From NCBI GenBank assembly GCA_934699095.1, contig CAKUVI010000003.1:67785-131784 (forward strand): DNA of 64,000 nt. Reading direction: 5' to 3'. The stretch's first letter is position 1. Each line of letters opens with the position of its first letter. The stretch is from an uncultured Bacteroidales bacterium. GTDB lineage: Bacteria > Bacteroidota > Bacteroidia > Bacteroidales > WCHB1-69. Under the pieces are notes generated by a model. That model saw nothing but the letters and a program-made list of their open reading frames with translations. It ran no database searches and was not told the origin of the DNA. Both the position numbers and the translations under genes were made by a program. This document shows, one piece after another, positions 8,136 through 54,606 of this stretch.

Positions 8136-8966
8136 ATGAGAGTAATATTAATCACAGGGGGAAGCAGTGGAATAGGATACAACACGGCCAAAGTTCTCGC
8201 ACAAGGGGGTGACAGAGTTTATGCTGCTGCGCGTCGCACCGACAAGATGGAGCCGCTCAGGGAGTTTGGAGTTGAGCCTGTTTCCATGGATGTGACAGAC
8301 GAGACGTCAATGCAGGACGGTGTGTCCATGATTCTTGAAAAAGAGGGGCGGATAGACATTTTGATCAACAATGCAGGATACGGTTATTTCGGGGCCATAG
8401 AGAATGTGGCGCCTGAGGAGGCACGTCGCCAGATAGAGGTCAACGTTTTCGGATTGGCGCGACTTTGTCAATTAGTGCTGCCCATAATGCGCAAGCAACA
8501 TTCCGGTCGAATCATCAACATCTCGTCCATAGCGGGAAAAAGCGTCCTTTTATACGGAGGATGGTACCATGTCTCAAAATATTCAGTGGAAGCCTTCACC
8601 GACGCACTCAGGATGGAGATGAAGCCTTTCGGGATTGACGTTGTAATGATAGAGCCTGGCGCCATAAAGACCAACTGGGGAATCATTGCAGCCGACAACC
8701 TCCAGGAATCTTCAAAGGGCACGGCTTACGAAACCACCGGCAAACAGGTGGCTGACAATATGAGATGGCTTTATGAATCAAATCATATATCTGATCCACA
8801 GATAGTTACAAATGCCATTCGCAAGGCTGTGAACAGTCGTTCGCCGCGTGCGCGCTACCGCATTGGCACTGCCTCGGGAATCACGGTCTTCTTGCACAAT
8901 GTTCTGCCAGCTAAATTGTGGGACAAGCTCATAAGTTTCATTATGACACGTAAAATCAGCAGGTGA
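8136..8966 (+). CDS. SDR family oxidoreductase
   Basis: ITGGSSGIG Rossmann motif, NNAG, and YxxxK (YHVSKYSVEAF). Confidence 0.85.
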   Translation: MRVILITGGSSGIGYNTAKVLAQGGDRVYAAARRTDKMEPLREFGVEPVSMDVTDETSMQDGVSMILEKEGRIDILINNAGYGYFGAIENVAPEEARRQIEVNVFGLARLCQLVLPIMRKQHSGRIINISSIAGKSVLLYGGWYHVSKYSVEAFTDALRMEMKPFGIDVVMIEPGAIKTNWGIIAADNLQESSKGTAYETTGKQVADNMRWLYESNHISDPQIVTNAIRKAVNSRSPRARYRIGTASGITVFLHNVLPAKLWDKLISFIMTRKISR

Positions 8967-35181: not shown

Positions 35182-36090
35182 ATGTCAATTACCGTTAAAG
35201 AGATCGAAGTAAAGTCGGTGGTCACCAAGACCAACCTGCCAGTGACCGACTACGCCGTGAACCCGTACGTGGGCTGTTTGCACGCTTGCAAGTATTGCTA
35301 CGCCTCGTTCATGAAGCGTTTCACCAACCATCCGGAGCCGTGGGGCGAGTTCCTCGACGTGAAAAACTGGCCTGACATTCACAATCGCGGGCAATACGCC
35401 GGCAAGGAGGCCTTCTTCTGCTCCGTGACCGACCCATACCAGCCGCATGAGGCCAAGTTCCAGCGGACGCGGAAAGTGCTGGAGCAGCTGCAAGGCACGG
35501 GCATCCGGCTCAGCATCTCCACCAAAAGCGACCTCATCCTCCGCGACCTCGACCTCATCAAGTCGTTTCCGGGCTCACGCGTATCGTGGAGCATCAACAC
35601 CTTGGACGAAGACTTCCGCAAGGAGATGGACCGCGCGGTCAGCATCGAGCGGCGCTTGGAGGCCATGCGGCAGTTCTACGAGGCCGGCATCAACACCACC
35701 TGCTTCATCTCCCCTATTTTCCCCGGCATCACCGACGTGGAGGCCATCATCGAAAGGGCAAAAAAACAATGCAACCTCGTATGGTTGGAGAATCTGAACC
35801 TGCGCGGCGACTACAAAGGGCACATCCTGCAATGGGTGCATGAGCACCATCCCGAGTTGGACGGCCTTTACCGCGACATCTACACCAAGAAAGACCGCAC
35901 CTATTGGAGCGAACTCGACACCGACTTGCGCCGATTCTGTGCTGAGAAGGGGTTCTTATACGTCCGCAACGACGACACAGTGCGCGCCAAGCACGGCGAA
36001 TCGCCCGTGGTGGTGAACTATTTCTACCACGAGGAAATCGTCCCCTCGGCCCGCAAGGAGCAGTTGCGGAAGACGCGGACGTGCTGCTGA
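35182..36090 (+). CDS. Radical SAM protein (SplB/DNA-photolyase-like COG1533 type)
   Basis: CxxxCxxC motif in GCLHACKYCYASF. Confidence 0.8.
   Translation: MSITVKEIEVKSVVTKTNLPVTDYAVNPYVGCLHACKYCYASFMKRFTNHPEPWGEFLDVKNWPDIHNRGQYAGKEAFFCSVTDPYQPHEAKFQRTRKVLEQLQGTGIRLSISTKSDLILRDLDLIKSFPGSRVSWSINTLDEDFRKEMDRAVSIERRLEAMRQFYEAGINTTCFISPIFPGITDVEAIIERAKKQCNLVWLENLNLRGDYKGHILQWVHEHHPELDGLYRDIYTKKDRTYWSELDTDLRRFCAEKGFLYVRNDDTVRAKHGESPVVVNYFYHEEIVPSARKEQLRKTRTCC
36057..36090 (+). repeat. Left copy of a 34-bp direct repeat (the 3' end of the radical SAM gene)
   Basis: GGAGCAGTTGCGGAAGACGCGGACGTGCTGCTGA recurs at 41596-41629 with 2 mismatches. Confidence 0.85.
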
Positions 36091-37842: not shown

Positions 37843-40800
37843 ATGAAAACTGAGAAACTATTAGCAGCGGCCGCTGCCGCTTTTGCCGAAAGATGGCAAG
37901 AAAAAGGATATGAGAGAGGCGAGTCCCAGCTGTTTTGGGCCGACTTGCTGACCAACGTGTATGGCGTGGAGGACCTGCCCTCTTTCATCCGCTACGAGGA
38001 GCGGGTGAGCAGCATGGTGGATTCCACCAACTTCATCGATGGGCACATTCCCTCGACAAGAGTGCTCATCGAGCAGAAATCCTTGGGCAAAGACCTGCGG
38101 GCTCCCGTCACGCAGAGCGACGGCGGCAAACTCACCCCTTTCCAGCAGGCGAAAAAATACGTGGCCAACATGCCCCTTTCGCAGCACCCCAAGTGGATCG
38201 TGACCTGCAACTTCGAGGAGTTCCTCGTCTATGACATGGAACGGCCGAACGGGGAGCCCGAACAGATTCTGCTGAAAAATTTGGGCAAAGAGTTCTTCCG
38301 TCTCCGGTTTTTAGTCGATAGCAGAAGCGAACATCTTGCGAAAGAACTGCAGGTCTCGATGAAGGCCGGCGAGATTGTGGGCAAAATGTACGATGCCCTG
38401 TTAGAGCGATACGACGACAATTCGCCCGAGGCCCTGCGCTGGCTCAACATCCTGTGTGTGCGCCTCGTTTTCTGCATGTACGCCGAGGATGCCGCCGTGT
38501 TCCGGCATGACCAGTTCCACGACTTCCTGAATGGATGCAGTGCCGAAGACCTGAACGAGGCCCTGCAGAAGCTCTTCAGTGTGCTCAACACGCCGTTGGA
38601 GAAACGCAGCAAATACCTGAAAGACGACCTGAAGGCGTTTCCTTACACCAACGGCGGCTTGTTCGAGGAGGAGATTGAGATTCCGATTTTCACGGAGGAG
38701 CTGAAGCAGACGCTGCTGCAGAACGCGAGCCTCGACTTCGACTGGAGCGAGATTTCGCCCACCATCTTCGGGGCCGTTTTCGAAAGCACGCTGAATCCCG
38801 TGACCCGGCGCAGCGGAGGCATGCACTACACCTCGATAGAGAATATCCACAAGGTGATAGACCCTCTTTTCTTGAATGATCTGCGCGATGAACTTGACGA
38901 AATCCTGACCGAGAAGACTGAAAAACAACGTGTTAAAAAACTGGAAGCGTATCAGGAAAAGCTGGCGTCGCTGACATTTCTCGACCCTGCCTGCGGCTCT
39001 GGAAATTTTCTCACGGAGACCTACCTTTCGCTAAGAAGGTTGGAGAATGAGGCCCTGCGCGAGCGTTATCACGGGCAAATGATGATGGGGGCGTTTATGA
39101 ACCCCGTCAAGGTGAGCATCCACCAGTTCTACGGAATCGAGATCAACGATTTCGCCGTCACAGTGGCCACCACCGCGCTTTGGATTTCCGAGGCGCAGAT
39201 GCTGGCGGAGACGGAGCGCATCATCCAGCACGACATCGACTTTCTGCCTCTGAAGAGCTATGCCAACATCAAGGAGGGAAATGCATTGCGGGTGGACTGG
39301 AACAGCATAGGAGCCGACGCTTCCAGCGTCGCTAAAGGAGGCAACGCTTCCAGCGTTGCAGAATACAGAACTGACACTACCAGCGCTGTAAAAGAAGGAA
39401 CAAGCGATTCTGTCGCCCTTGGGAATGGGGCTGAGAATGTCATGCTGGGAAGCAAGTCTGAGAATGTCACGCTTGGAAGCAAGTCTGAGAATGTCACGCT
39501 TGGAAGCAAGTCTGAGAATGTCACGCTTGGAAGCGTGACCTCCTTGCATTTCATGGAACGGAAAGCTTACATCCAAATAACAGGGACAAAGCTTCCGCAC
39601 TGGCATCAAGAAAATAAAGTTCAGTTTGTTACATTTCGACTTGCCGATTCATTACCTCAATCCAAGTTAGCCGAGCTTTCGGAATTCAAAGAAGAGTGGA
39701 TATCCAAGCATCCAGAACCTTGGGACCGCAAGACCGAGGAAGAATACAACCATATCATACGCAAACGTGTCGATAAATGGCTTGACCAAAACTACGGTTC
39801 TTGCTTGCTTCAAAGGGCAGACTTAAGAAAAATAGTTGTTGATGCTCTGCTCTTTTATCACGGAAAGCGCTATTGGTTACATCATTTTGTCATCATGCCC
39901 AATCATGTCCATCTGTTGCTTTCACCCATAGGTGAAGAAACTGTAGGGAAAGCATTAGGTAGTGTTAAACAATTTACGTCCAACGCCATCAACAAGGCAA
40001 TTGGAGCCAAAGGGTCGGTTTGGCAGCGTGAAGTTTTTGACAGAATGGTGCGCGATGCCGACAACTACGAGGCATACGTGGCCTATATCAACAACAATCC
40101 GGCAAATCTGCCTCAAGGTTCATTTACCATAGGAGGCGACGCTGGAAGCGTCGCTAAAGGAGGCAACGCTTCCAGCGTTGCAACAAAGGGAGCAAGTGAT
40201 TTTGTCACGCTTGGAAGCGAGCCTGATGACTCTGTCACGCTTGGAAGCGAGCCTGATGACTCTGTCACGCTTGGAAGCGTGACCTCCTATGACTACATCA
40301 TGGGTAACCCGCCGTTTGTGGGCTACACATTCCAAAGCAAGGAACAAAAGGATGACCTTGCAGCCATAATGAAAGGCTTTGGCAGCAATATCGACTATGT
40401 GGCCGGATGGTATCTCAAGGCCTCTCAATATATGCAGTCGAACCCTCAAACCCGGTGCGCTTTGGTGTCAACCAATTCCATCACACAAGGCGAACAAGTG
40501 TCGGCAATTTGGAAACCTTTGTTTGAAAAATTCGGCATACACTTTGATTTCGCCTACCGCACTTTCCGCTGGGACAGCGAAGCTGACATCAAGGCGCATG
40601 TGCATTGCGTGGTATTAGGTTTTTCCGTTGCACCAAATTCCAAGCCAAGGACTATTTATCTTCCCGAAGGACAGTCTATTCAGGTGTCCAATATCAATGG
40701 CTATTTGCTGGATGCGCCGGATGTGTTTATCGAGAATCGGAAGAAGCCTTTGTGCGATGTTCCAGAGATGGTAAAAGGAAGTCAGCCAACCGATGGTGGG

Positions 40801-41571
40801 AACCTGATTTTGTCCAAAGCCGAAATGGAAGATTTGGTCGGCAAGTATCCGCAAATTGAGCCTTACGTTCACCGCTATGTCGGATCCGATGAGTTCATCA
40901 ACAACAAATACCGTTATTGCCTATGGCTTGCCAACGCCAATCCTGCGGTTTTGCGTTCATGCCCGCCCGTAATGGAGCGGATTGAGCGGGTAAGGCAAAT
41001 GCGACTTTCAAGTCCGAAAGCTGCCACACAGAAATGGGCGGAGTTTCCAACGCTTTTCACCGAGAACCGGCAGCCCGAAAGCGACTACCTGCTTGTGCCC
41101 AGCGTCAGCTCGGAAAACAGAAGATATGTCCCCATCGGTTATATGAAGAAAGATGTGGTTGCCAGCAATCTTGCCTTTGTCGTACCCAATGCATCGCTTT
41201 ATCATTTTGGTGTGATTACTTCCAACGTCCACATGGCCTGGATGCGTGCCGTTTGCGGGAGGTTAAAGAGTGATTATAGATATAGCAACACCATCGTCTA
41301 TAACAACTTCCCGTGGCCGAATCCTACCGAAAAGCAAAAGGCAAAGATTGAGCAGACGGCCCAGGCCATACTCGATGTCCGGGCCAAATATCCGGACTGC
41401 TCGTTGGCCGACCTCTACGACGAGGCCGCCATGCCGCCCGAGTTGCGCAAAGCCCATCAGGAGAACGACAAAGCCTTGATGGTGGCCTACGGGTTCGATA
41501 TCAAGATGAGTGAAAGCGAGTGTGTGGCCGAACTGTTCCGAGTGTACACGCAGTTTACGGCTGAATCATGA
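37843..41571 (+). CDS. MmeI-family type IIL restriction-modification enzyme (nuclease plus N6-adenine methyltransferase plus TRD) carrying an in-frame RAYT insertion
   Basis: N-terminal D...EQK nuclease motif (NFIDGHIPSTRVLIEQKSLG), FLDPACGSGNFL (motif I), IMGNPPFVG (motif IV) and a long C-terminal TRD. Motifs I and IV are separated by the 39313-40287 insert. Confidence 0.85.
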   Translation: MKTEKLLAAAAAAFAERWQEKGYERGESQLFWADLLTNVYGVEDLPSFIRYEERVSSMVDSTNFIDGHIPSTRVLIEQKSLGKDLRAPVTQSDGGKLTPFQQAKKYVANMPLSQHPKWIVTCNFEEFLVYDMERPNGEPEQILLKNLGKEFFRLRFLVDSRSEHLAKELQVSMKAGEIVGKMYDALLERYDDNSPEALRWLNILCVRLVFCMYAEDAAVFRHDQFHDFLNGCSAEDLNEALQKLFSVLNTPLEKRSKYLKDDLKAFPYTNGGLFEEEIEIPIFTEELKQTLLQNASLDFDWSEISPTIFGAVFESTLNPVTRRSGGMHYTSIENIHKVIDPLFLNDLRDELDEILTEKTEKQRVKKLEAYQEKLASLTFLDPACGSGNFLTETYLSLRRLENEALRERYHGQMMMGAFMNPVKVSIHQFYGIEINDFAVTVATTALWISEAQMLAETERIIQHDIDFLPLKSYANIKEGNALRVDWNSIGADASSVAKGGNASSVAEYRTDTTSAVKEGTSDSVALGNGAENVMLGSKSENVTLGSKSENVTLGSKSENVTLGSVTSLHFMERKAYIQITGTKLPHWHQENKVQFVTFRLADSLPQSKLAELSEFKEEWISKHPEPWDRKTEEEYNHIIRKRVDKWLDQNYGSCLLQRADLRKIVVDALLFYHGKRYWLHHFVIMPNHVHLLLSPIGEETVGKALGSVKQFTSNAINKAIGAKGSVWQREVFDRMVRDADNYEAYVAYINNNPANLPQGSFTIGGDAGSVAKGGNASSVATKGASDFVTLGSEPDDSVTLGSEPDDSVTLGSVTSYDYIMGNPPFVGYTFQSKEQKDDLAAIMKGFGSNIDYVAGWYLKASQYMQSNPQTRCALVSTNSITQGEQVSAIWKPLFEKFGIHFDFAYRTFRWDSEADIKAHVHCVVLGFSVAPNSKPRTIYLPEGQSIQVSNINGYLLDAPDVFIENRKKPLCDVPEMVKGSQPTDGGNLILSKAEMEDLVGKYPQIEPYVHRYVGSDEFINNKYRYCLWLANANPAVLRSCPPVMERIERVRQMRLSSPKAATQKWAEFPTLFTENRQPESDYLLVPSVSSENRRYVPIGYMKKDVVASNLAFVVPNASLYHFGVITSNVHMAWMRAVCGRLKSDYRYSNTIVYNNFPWPNPTEKQKAKIEQTAQAILDVRAKYPDCSLADLYDEAAMPPELRKAHQENDKALMVAYGFDIKMSESECVAELFRVYTQFTAES
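39307..39543 (+). repeat. Left REP-like module flanking the RAYT core
   Basis: Hairpins GACGCT-TCC-AGCGTC (39316-39330) and CAACGCT-TCC-AGCGTTG (39342-39358). Three 27-nt tandem units lie at 39448-39528. Terminal hairpin GTCACGCTTGGAAGCGTGAC at 39520-39539. Confidence 0.85.
39553..40128 (+). mobile_element. REP-associated tyrosine transposase (RAYT, Y1/HUH, IS200-like) coding core with no stop codon of its own
   Basis: MERKAYIQITGTKLPHWHQENKVQFVTFRLADSLP, HUH in IMPNHVHLLL, WQREVFDRMVRD, and the Tyr motif NYEAYVAYINNNP. Confidence 0.8.
40129..40288 (+). repeat. Right REP-like module flanking the RAYT core
   Basis: A 54-nt direct repeat of 39307-39360, but with the first hairpin loop inverted (GACGCT-GGA-AGCGTC, 40138-40152). 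Two 30-nt tandem units lie at 40213-40272. The terminal 25 nt are identical to 39520-39544. Confidence 0.85.
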
Positions 41572-48181: not shown

Positions 48182-49018
48182 ATGGAATACAAAACGTTGA
48201 ACAATGGACTGAAGATGCCGATAGTCGGCCTTGGGGTCTATAACATCTCCGAAAAGGAGACGCAAAGGGTGGTGGAAGACGCCTTGTCGGTGGGCTACCG
48301 CAGCATCGACACGGCCGCCATGTACGAAAACGAGAAAGGCGTGGGCGACGCGGTTCGGGCTTGCGGCGTTCCCCGCGAGGAGCTGTTCGTCACCACCAAG
48401 ATCTGCGAGCCCTGCCATACGCGGGAGGAGACGCTGCGCACGGTTGACCGTTCCATGCGGCAGATCGGCCTGGACTATGTGGATCTGATGCTGCTCCACT
48501 GGCCTGTGGGGAACCCCGCCGTGATGTGGCAAACGCTCGAAGAACTCCACGCACAAGGCATGTTCAAGGCCATCGGGGTGTCGAACTTCTATCCCAACAC
48601 CTTCCCGATGATTGTGAAGGACGCCAAGGTCATGCCCGTCGTGAACCAATGCGAGGTCCATGTGCTCTACCAGCAGCGGAAAATGAGGGAATATCTGAAG
48701 CCTTACGGAGTGGCTATGGAGGCCTGGAGCCCGTTGGCGGAAGGGCGGAGCAGCATCTTCAAGAACGAGACGTTGGTAAGTATCGGCGAGAAATACGGCA
48801 AGACATCCGCCCAGGTTGCTTTGAAGTTCCTGGTCCAGAACGACATCATCATCATTCCCAAGACGACGCACAAGGAGAGGATGGTGGAGAACATCAGCCT
48901 CTTCGACTTCGCGCTGACAGACGGCGACCTCGCCGAGATCCGGCGGTTAGACACCGGCCGCAATGTGACCGGCTGGCCGTCGGATGCGCTTGTGTATGAG
49001 CCTGCGGTTGTTGGTTAG
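48182..49018 (+). CDS. Aldo/keto reductase (copy 1)
   Basis: MEYKTLNNGLKMPIVGLGVY, IDTAAMYENE, LLHWP, SNF. Confidence 0.85.
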   Translation: MEYKTLNNGLKMPIVGLGVYNISEKETQRVVEDALSVGYRSIDTAAMYENEKGVGDAVRACGVPREELFVTTKICEPCHTREETLRTVDRSMRQIGLDYVDLMLLHWPVGNPAVMWQTLEELHAQGMFKAIGVSNFYPNTFPMIVKDAKVMPVVNQCEVHVLYQQRKMREYLKPYGVAMEAWSPLAEGRSSIFKNETLVSIGEKYGKTSAQVALKFLVQNDIIIIPKTTHKERMVENISLFDFALTDGDLAEIRRLDTGRNVTGWPSDALVYEPAVVG

Positions 49019-53808: not shown

Positions 53809-54606
53809 ATGGTCGGCCTTGGGGTCTATAACATCCCCGAAAAAGAGACGCAAAGGGTGGTGGAAGACGCCTTGTCGGTGGGCTACCGCAGCATTGACAC
53901 GGCTGCCATGTACGAAAACGAGAAAGGCGTAGGCGACGCGGTTCGGGCTTGCAACGTTCCACGCGAAGAGCTGTTCGTCACCACCAAAATCTGCGAGCCC
54001 TGCTATACGCGGGAGGAGACGCTACGCACAGTTGACCAGTCCATGCGGCAGATCGGATTGGACTATGTGGATCTGATGCTACTCCACTGGCCCGTGGGAA
54101 ACCCCACCGTCATGTGGCACACGCTCGAAGAACTCTATGCGCAAGGCATGTTCAAGGCCATCGGAGTGTCGAACTTCTATCCCAACACCTTCCCGATGAT
54201 TGTGGAGGACGCCAAGGTCATGCCCGTCGTGAACCAATGCGAGGCCCATGTGCTCTACCAGCAGCGGAAAATGAGGGAATACCTGAAGCCTTACGATGTG
54301 GCTTTGGAGGCCTGGAGTCCGTTGGCAGAAGGCCGGAGCAGCATCTTCAAAGACAAGATTTTGATGAGTATAGGCGAAAAATACGGCAAGACTTCCGCCC
54401 AGATAGCCTTGAAATTCCTCGTCCAGAACGACATCATCATCATTCCCAAGACGACGCACAAGGAGAGGATGGTGGAGAACATCAGTCTCTTCGACTTCAC
54501 GCTGACAGACGGCGACCTCGCCGAAATACAGCGGTTGGACACCGGCCGGAATGTGACTGGCTGGCCGTCGGATGCGCTTATATATGAGCCTGCGGCTGTT
54601 GGTTAG
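53770..54606 (+). CDS. Aldo/keto reductase (copy 2, a close paralog of 48182-49018)
   Basis: Collinear with copy 1 and nearly identical to it. An alternative start lies at 53758. Confidence 0.85.
   Translation: MEHKILNNGLKMPMVGLGVYNIPEKETQRVVEDALSVGYRSIDTAAMYENEKGVGDAVRACNVPREELFVTTKICEPCYTREETLRTVDQSMRQIGLDYVDLMLLHWPVGNPTVMWHTLEELYAQGMFKAIGVSNFYPNTFPMIVEDAKVMPVVNQCEAHVLYQQRKMREYLKPYDVALEAWSPLAEGRSSIFKDKILMSIGEKYGKTSAQIALKFLVQNDIIIIPKTTHKERMVENISLFDFTLTDGDLAEIQRLDTGRNVTGWPSDALIYEPAAVG

Follow-up and report, generated by a model that had tools for sequence, protein, structure and literature searches.

Genes for transposases associated with repetitive extragenic palindromes (REPs), termed REP-associated tyrosine transposases (RAYTs) or TnpA_REP, are said to have been described by Nunvar in 2010 and by Ton-Hoang in 2012 as REPtrons when they are flanked by their own REPs. 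Here, a unit of this kind was analyzed in a stretch of 64,000 nucleotides (the window) from an uncultured Bacteroidales bacterium (GenBank assembly GCA_934699095.1, contig CAKUVI010000003.1, positions 67,785 to 131,784 of the forward strand). The unit is probably a complete REPtron that sits in frame within a chromosomal gene for an MmeI-family restriction-modification enzyme. Like the published REPtrons, it has a Y1/HUH transposase (NHVH, WQ, and YIxNNP motifs) next to inverted REP hairpins, and its modules are of the "double-foot" kind; the foot may be of the GTAG type. The published REPtrons are free-standing between genes, whereas the unit in the window lies inside the reading frame of another gene and would be read through.

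Palindromes within coding sequence have precedents. The Rickettsia palindromic elements (RPEs) of Ogata (2000) reportedly lie in frame in protein-coding genes. Intragenic REPs and RPEs resemble the window insert in that the palindromes are in frame, encode 20–80 extra residues, are thought to lie in loops or linkers, and are common in genes of DNA metabolism. They contain no transposase gene, whereas the window insert adds a 194-codon enzyme between two modules; the insert is thus not a nonautonomous RPE-type element, since it contains a RAYT. REPs within genes of DNA metabolism have been documented (Di Nocera 2013, PMC3733652). RAYT Group 4 (Bertels 2017, PMC5581495) is equivalent to subclass 2.4 (Quentin 2018, PMC6006769), for which the signature is NH[IFV]H / WQ / YIxNNP. 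This subclass has "double-foot" REPs, and REPs are inserted in frame within the RAYT gene itself; unexpectedly long RAYT proteins were set aside in that study as gene fusions or annotation errors (PMC6006769). In-frame REPs are therefore already published. A whole RAYT embedded in frame was not found described in the literature searched, a body that omits most subscription journals, and this is absence of evidence.

Inteins are likewise selfish in-frame inserts in conserved and often essential proteins; they are translated with the host and occupy the same site in homologous hosts. The window insert differs in having no Hint or splicing domain and no sign of removal from the protein, and in carrying an HUH transposase in place of the intein homing endonuclease. 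An intein was rejected: Pfam reports no Hint or intein family, and the insert starts with IGADA and ends with GSVTS followed by Y, with no splice-junction residues. The IS200/IS605 elements and the IStrons have a related Y1 fold and subterminal hairpins at their ends, and like the IStrons the insert would leave intact the gene in which it sits. The motifs in the window are those of class 2 (RAYT), NHVH and YINNNP, instead of the DH[VI]H and Y[IV]ENQ of class 1 TnpA, and what would preserve the gene is translation through the insert, rather than splicing of the RNA or exact excision of the element. The insert shows no evident TnpB or group I intron; Pfam reports none, and the array, RAYT, and array fill the insert completely.

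Results

Host Gene and Insertion Site

The gene that carries the insert and its two junctions are as follows.

37843–41571, + strand: host gene, predicted MmeI-family type IIL restriction-modification enzyme; a single uninterrupted open reading frame (ORF) of 1242 codons, insert included (ORF list, translation)
39283–39306, + strand: left host junction, GNALRVDWNS; aligns as far as MmeI residue 469 (PDB 5HR4)
40288–40317, + strand: right host junction, YDYIMGNPPF; the alignment resumes at MmeI residue 477 (PDB 5HR4)

The host protein matched the Pfam families MmeI_N, MmeI_hel, MmeI_Mtase, MmeI_TRD, and MmeI_C, all five far over the cut-off, and an E value of 2.6e-76 was obtained with the structure of MmeI (PDB 5HR4). 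The nuclease motif D66...E77-x-K79, the methyltransferase motif I DPACGSGNF (38983–39009), and the methyltransferase motif IV NPPF (40306–40317) are all intact. With this five-domain architecture and these motifs, the gene product is predicted to be an MmeI-family type IIL enzyme.

A match to Y1_Tnp (IS200-like transposase) interrupts the MmeI_Mtase match at profile position 135/136. The insert is 981 nt long (39307–40287, 327 codons) and is in frame with the host gene. In the alignment to 5HR4 it replaces a 7-residue loop between MmeI residues 469 and 477, directly before motif IV. The peptides that span the host–insert junctions of the predicted fusion include NSIGADASSVAK and LGSVTSYDYIMGNPPF.

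The loop at the insertion site contains either ~12 or ~65 residues in the 120 closest MmeI homologue clusters, and the site therefore tolerates variation in length. No match to the searched REP-encoded peptide motifs was found in 117 of these 120 clusters; the other 3 gave a match. The insert is absent from MmeI relatives that are 77–83% identical, so that, as in intragenic REP or RPE-type insertions, a palindromic sequence is present in frame and is missing from orthologues.

Anatomy of the REP Modules

The two modules that flank the RAYT were delimited from their repeats and their folding.

39307–39545, + strand: left REP module; encodes 9-residue units rich in Gly, Ser, Ala, and Asp
39307–39332, + strand: REP1 of the left module, ATAGGAG plus a hairpin with loop TCC
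39333–39359, + strand: REP2 of the left module
39431–39534, + strand: 27-nt array of the left module, 3.9 copies, 97% matches
39520–39545, + strand: terminal REP of the left module, opposite orientation, hairpin plus CTCCTT
40129–40290, + strand: right REP module
40129–40154, + strand: REP1' of the right module, loop flipped to GGA
40155–40181, + strand: REP2' of the right module
40203–40279, + strand: 30-nt array of the right module, 2.6 copies, 100% matches
40264–40290, + strand: terminal REP of the right module, opposite orientation, hairpin plus CTCCTAT

An earlier reading of these letters (the original prediction) had described a direct repeat, hairpins, tandem arrays, a shared 25-nt terminus, and a common stem core. 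Each of these was recovered at its predicted position, and together they are far beyond chance. The direct repeat is 55 nt long and holds two hairpins (39306–39360 and 40128–40182; 93% identity, offset 822). The 25-nt terminus GTCACGCTTGGAAGCGTGACCTCCT occurs exactly twice in the 64 kb, at 39520 and 40264 (offset 744; chance expectation 0.00). The stem core ACGCTTCCAGCGT, with at most one mismatch, has four occurrences, all within the modules, against 0.09 expected in 64 kb. When folded as single-stranded DNA, the hairpins gave z-scores of –4.6 to –6.9 relative to shuffles. The 27-nt unit proposed for the left tandem repeat is correct, but it is present in nearly four copies (3.9) rather than in three, and further 27-nt units, more degenerate in sequence, carry the array to the left as far as about 39405.

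The offsets of 822 and 744 are both multiples of 3, as had been claimed, and the region lies in one frame of 1242 codons. In arithmetic terms, recombination between the modules could thus delete the RAYT in frame; the RAYT-less allele that such a deletion would leave was not found, and no RAYT-less module is present at the site before NPPF among the 120 closest MmeI homologue clusters.

Both modules are delimited by their own inverted termini (ATAGGAG...CTCCT). The true inverted REP pair consists of the two REPs nearest the RAYT. These inner REPs, at 39520–39545 (hairpin plus CTCCT) and 40129–40154 (AGGAG plus hairpin), are 88–89% complementary, and their tails face the RAYT. The outer ends of the insert form a 20-nt inverted pair. 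The RAYT lies between inverted REP hairpins of its own, which is the arrangement of a REPtron.

The first hairpin is GACGCT-TCC-AGCGTC on the left and GACGCT-GGA-AGCGTC on the right, with one further base changed just upstream. The flip had been interpreted as a REP in inverted orientation. This interpretation was abandoned, since the inversion is confined to the 3 nt of the loop, with the AGGAG tail and the remainder of the 55-nt repeat in direct orientation. Stem-mediated inversion of the loop within the palindrome is a simpler cause of the flip, and an equal flip is present in an unrelated RAYT/REP family (locus L021). Because the loop is flipped to GGA, hairpins 1 and 2 of the right module are mutually complementary, and they can pair with each other to form a single 16-bp hairpin that resembles a REP doublet.

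REP Family in Other Genomes

The 20-nt terminal hairpin was found as an exact copy in 17 stretches of rumen Prevotella and related genomes, mostly intergenic, and on up to 7 contigs of one related genome, again mostly between genes. The foot of the window REPs is ATAGGAG/CTCCTAT. The hairpin copies in the Prevotella genomes are tailed by C[TC]ACTAC or CTCCTAC (as CTACTAC, CCACTAC, or CTCCTAC), which is the reverse complement of the GTAG foot. Because the same hairpin recurs, mostly in intergenic DNA, with a GTAG-type foot, the hairpins of the window are assigned by sequence to a genuine REP family. Related hairpins, the lack of which anywhere else had been named as grounds for giving up the original prediction, are therefore present in relatives.

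The 79-residue peptide encoded by the left module was compared with a set of 5.8 billion proteins; one weak match was returned, with no sign of the exact module in other proteins of the set.

Two side observations concern the same sequences. In a Prevotella genome (L015:2477–2496) the REP hairpin lies in an open frame of 928 codons, on the opposite strand and in another frame, where it is read as GHASKRD; in-frame REPs of this hairpin family are therefore not confined to one reading. Within the window, similar 21-mers at 48424–48444 and 54012–54032 (GGAGGAGACGCTGCGCACGGT and GGAGGAGACGCTACGCACAGT) are weak matches to the REP pattern and probably reflect a recurrent coding motif that has nothing to do with REPs.

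RAYT Core

The core of the insert and its motifs are listed below.

39553–40134, + strand: RAYT core of 194 codons, TnpA_REP-like Y1/HUH transposase (Pfam, phmmer, AlphaFold2, Foldseek)
39592–39606, + strand: LPHWH motif (RAYT sequence)
39901–39912, + strand: HUH motif NHVH, the metal-binding motif (RAYT sequence)
40018–40032, + strand: WQ motif, VWQRE (RAYT sequence)
40075–40101, + strand: Tyr motif YVAYINNNP (RAYT sequence); aligns to the Tyr motif of 4ER8

The Pfam score for Y1_Tnp is 26.5 bits against a cut-off of 23. In a phmmer search of the PDB the RAYT matched 4ER8, the RAYT of E. coli, at an E value of 0.0045. An AlphaFold2 model was calculated for residues 470–835. The predicted local distance difference test score (pLDDT) is >90 for the RAYT core, and it is <50 for the REP-encoded flanks, which are modeled as coil with no secondary structure. 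A folded RAYT domain on disordered REP-encoded tethers is therefore predicted by the model. The top PDB match of the model in Foldseek is 4ER8 (the E. coli RAYT–REP complex; E value of 3e-6), followed by the TnpA structures of IS200/IS605.

The NHVH motif is invariant in RAYT alignments A1, A3, and A4, and the Y, I, N, and P of the Tyr motif are invariant in A1 and A3. NHVH, WQ, and YINNNP, together with a core of 194 residues, correspond to the subclass 2.4 signature in a motif comparison (Table 1 of PMC6006769). By motifs and length the RAYT thus appears to match subclass 2.4 (Group 4 of Bertels 2017). The guanine plus cytosine content of the RAYT is 43.6%, versus 52.4% for the host gene. 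No TAnnTTTG promoter motif was seen by eye upstream of 39553.

Comparison with Relatives

A same-species relative (L018, assembly GCA_045225055.1) is collinear with the window over 16 kb at 92–98% nucleotide identity. It has the same insert, and both junctions are identical to those in the window. The right module of L018 is shorter by 27 nt (hairpins 1 and 2 are fused) and by 60 nt (two 30-nt units), and the frame is kept. Variation in the copy number of the arrays, which had been anticipated, is thus seen directly between strains. The ORF through the insert is open in the window and in the diverged L018.

Synonymous (dS) and nonsynonymous (dN) substitution rates between the window and L018 were calculated by the method of Nei and Gojobori.

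Host N-terminal part: dS 0.18, dN/dS 0.06
Host middle part: dS 0.21, dN/dS 0.16
Left module: dS 0.17, dN/dS 0.13; 9 synonymous and 4 nonsynonymous substitutions, binomial p ~8e-4 versus neutrality
RAYT core: dS 0.008, dN/dS not informative; 2 substitutions only

The left array therefore appears, from its substitution pattern, to evolve like coding sequence. The proposal that the arrangement was selected to stay translatable gains from this excess of synonymous changes and from the preservation of the frame in L018 after changes of 27 and 60 nt. Because the dS of the left module is about that of the host, the insert would be as old as the divergence of the alleles. The near-identity of the RAYT core points to recombination or gene conversion that spanned the RAYT in the recent past. 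The host gene is itself a mosaic, with blocks of 80–100% identity between 37843–41571 of the window and L018:6001–9702.

A second REP site was located by comparison with L018 and a further relative, L019.

41320–41346, + strand: second REP site, empty in the window; codons for NPTEKQKAK at the boundary of the target-recognition domain (TRD) and the C-terminal domain

The second site is occupied in L018 (9387–9475) by a RAYT-less REP module of 30 codons and in L019 (about 8691–8850) by one of 53 codons, both in frame. These modules take the place of the nine native codons for NPTEKQKAK, and they fit the class of intragenic REPs and RPEs, which in this comparison is represented by them only. The identity of L018 and L019 rises from 54% before the second site to 99–100% beyond it, which marks a recombination breakpoint there.

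In another MmeI-like gene (P0246, 866 aa), an unrelated REP family with EQECS[HR]S units is present at the site before NPPF. P0246 also has a RAYT plus module whose end coincides precisely with the second site, before IEKTAQGIL, and the gene lacks the target-recognition region. It looks as though sequence between REP modules had been replaced or deleted with the frame kept.

In L018 (9765–10655) and in L019 (9138–10028), the MmeI gene is followed immediately by a radical-SAM gene; in the window that gene is found ~1.7 kb upstream (35198–36088). This shift in position is a local rearrangement beside the MmeI locus.

Recurrence in Other Host Genes

It is common for RAYT relatives from Bacteroidales to have REP flanks that are translated in frame with the RAYT, for example with GADASSVA units of the same type as in the window. 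Several relatives lie within PglX/Eco57I-like, Fic, and WYL proteins, with other REP sequences in the same layout and units of 30 and 33 nt. The codon-phased flanks of unrelated RAYT/REP families have units of 27, 30, and 33 nt.

Metagenome contigs were scanned with a RAYT alignment, and 80 loci were obtained, 79 of them scorable. The RAYT frame is open upstream over a median of 69 codons, versus 29 and 19 codons in the two control frames. At 20 of the 79 loci the RAYT frame is open for at least 190 codons on each side, and at no locus is this so in either control frame. For tandem arrays beside RAYTs, the period is a multiple of 3 in 34 instances and not in 13 when the array is open in frame; the corresponding numbers for arrays that contain stops are 3 and 16 (Fisher p 6e-5). 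A translatable arrangement, as put forward in the original prediction, is hence found as codon-phased flanks in unrelated families, and about a quarter of the RAYT relatives are embedded in frame.

Host domains on both sides of the embedded RAYT, in the same frame, were identified with Pfam for LeuRS, CarB, a DinG-like helicase, RarA, HsdR, and Eco57I. A host domain on one side only was identified for ValRS, N6_N4_Mtase, and DUF1156, where the hosts are truncated by the contig or partly annotated. Other metagenomic hosts are a CARF-adenosine deaminase, a Clp-type ATPase, and an oxidoreductase. Inverted REPs are kept at both ends of the embedded copies; those of L036 are 27 nt long and 100% complementary, with a GTAGG foot. 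Among the RAYT copies in large ORFs, NH[VA]H is kept in 33 of 33, and there is no Met near the start of the RAYT in 27 of the 33.

A phmmer search of 1.84 billion cluster representatives returned 7890 RAYT homologues, of which the best 150 were examined. Forty of these 150 representatives have at least 400 aa and an internal RAYT. The hosts among the 40 include MmeI_Mtase (7, the commonest), Eco57I (6), and LeuRS (4). Further hosts that carry the same RAYT family are PdxA, UxaC, and HypF.

Occupation of one position by divergent RAYTs was observed in two host families. The RAYTs of two CarB genes (L049 and L051) lie at the same position; identity is 98.9% between the hosts and 67% between the RAYTs. 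The RAYTs of three LeuRS genes (L034, L035, and L074) also share a position, with hosts 68–80% and RAYTs 45–53% identical. The divergence of the RAYTs beyond that of their hosts could be due to fast evolution of the RAYT or to repeated invasion of the same site.

At L066:2513–5293 an in-frame RAYT is present in a protein with a match to a CRISPR-associated family (Cas_NE0113) and an adenosine deaminase domain; by these domains the host resembles a CARF-deaminase defense effector. Several free-standing RAYT homologues (P0005, P0013, P0046, and P0118) bear the JGI label "type I restriction enzyme R subunit". The label, likely an annotation error, may have come from HsdR genes such as L045 and L089, in which a RAYT is embedded.

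Discussion

The insert is best explained as a complete REPtron, a RAYT with its own REP arrays, that lies in frame in a chromosomal MmeI-family gene, within a naturally variable loop of the methyltransferase domain, and whose translatability is kept by selection. We consider this reading probable. The element is compatible with coding, with REP units of 9–10 codons, no stops in the RAYT frame, and a total of 327 codons. Because the arrays are codon-phased and free of stops and the total is 327 codons, a ribosome could read through the host N-terminus, the array, the RAYT, the second array, and the host C-terminus. A fusion of 1242 residues would be made, and the restriction-modification enzyme would tolerate the insert. 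The RAYT, either as a domain of the fusion or as a protein made from its own ATG, would cut and join single-stranded DNA at REP hairpins and might spread RAYT-less modules like those at the second site of the relatives. The arrays would grow and shrink through slippage or REP–REP recombination. If only frame-keeping insertions in permissive loops persist, the translatability of the elements would be shaped by this filter.

Several points weigh against this explanation. The synonymous excess in the left array amounts to 13 substitutions only, and a constraint on the hairpins as DNA could contribute to it. Simple estimates of age are weakened by the dS of 0.008 in the RAYT core versus ~0.18 in the flanks. 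The module at the second site replaces about nine native codons, and the same probably holds at the first site; this is not predicted by single-strand cut-and-paste of the IS200/IS605 type. The RAYT of the window has kept its own ATG (39553), so that independent translation is possible and read-through is perhaps not needed for its expression. There is no further copy of the window REP in the other 63 kb of the window, and the element therefore counts only as potentially mobile in the source genome at present. The production of the fusion and the activity of the enzyme are inferred from sequence.

Domestication of the RAYT is an alternative, in which the transposase would be an accessory domain that provides restriction and other defense enzymes with a new function in the cleavage or recognition of single-stranded DNA. 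In its favor, the embedded copies have conserved catalytic motifs, the insert has been retained while the alleles diverged, and many of the hosts act in defense, including MmeI, Eco57I/PglX-like proteins, HsdR, DUF1156, Fic, WYL, and the CARF-adenosine deaminase. A defense role would make no sense, however, in LeuRS, CarB, RarA, PdxA, UxaC, and HypF, which carry the same RAYT family. The MmeI relatives at 77–83% identity have no insert, the composition of the RAYT differs from that of the host gene, and the REP hairpins are kept at both ends as in mobile units. Domestication is judged improbable.

A programmed switch is improbable to the same degree. Here, RAYT-catalyzed excision, or recombination between the in-phase direct repeats of 55 and 25 nt, would toggle the enzyme between forms, which is the excision and variable architecture suggested in the original prediction. 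The phase of the repeats (offsets 822 and 744), the difference in array length between strains, the RAYT-less in-frame modules at the second site in relatives, and the resemblance of P0246, a different MmeI-like gene, to an in-frame internal deletion between REP modules would all fit a switch. A deletion by recombination is irreversible, however, and neither a RAYT-less module nor a clean empty allele was seen at the site in the 120 closest homologue clusters; the comparison of array lengths covers two strains only.

Still less likely is a restriction-modification gene that was knocked out by a transposon and that has an open frame by coincidence. Such genes are dispensable and often inactivated, and the RAYT portion would be open as a gene in its own right. 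The coincidence would nevertheless have to comprise the right orientation, the frame at both junctions, and ~135 stop-free codons in the flanks. It would be needed again in L018 for two independent array deletions and for the insertion at the second site, all multiples of 3. The dN/dS values of 0.06–0.16 in the host and its intact catalytic motifs also argue against a knockout, and the same read-through layout recurs in the essential LeuRS, ValRS, and CarB, where a knockout is not viable. An assembly artifact, a chimeric contig joined via repeats of the kind that can mislead short-read assemblers, is scarcely credible, given that an independent assembly (L018) has identical junctions on both sides, within 16 collinear kb, and that analogous embedded copies are found in many unrelated assemblies.

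The in-frame REPtron with selected translatability may belong to something larger. Embedded RAYTs could be a widespread and undescribed class of selfish elements, intein-like without splicing, that combine an HUH transposase with hairpins placed in codons, are often startless, and are expressed only as an internal domain of host proteins, including LeuRS, ValRS, and CarB. This proposal is tentative, and we hold it to be slightly short of an even chance. On this proposal the embedded RAYTs would be protected from loss, because imprecise deletion would destroy the host gene, and they might home to specific sites. Homing is suggested as a possibility by the 98.9%-identical CarB genes that bear 67%-identical RAYTs at one position and by the two MmeI sites that are shared by unrelated REP families.

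The insert looks like a clear and well-preserved case of a seemingly general and overlooked RAYT lifestyle. Transposons are expected to break the genes that they enter, and this insert appears to be built for read-through. Recombination breakpoints around the target-recognition domain of the MmeI gene fall at the REP sites. If the fusions are made and are functional, they would represent a third lifestyle of RAYTs, in addition to the free-standing domesticated gene and the element that resembles an insertion sequence, and they would explain the "translatable" REPs of one RAYT subclass. They would also place an enzyme that acts on single-stranded DNA inside restriction-modification, BREX-like, and housekeeping proteins, where domain shuffling could be influenced, and they would provide a natural map of the sites in large enzymes that tolerate insertions of 250–330 residues.

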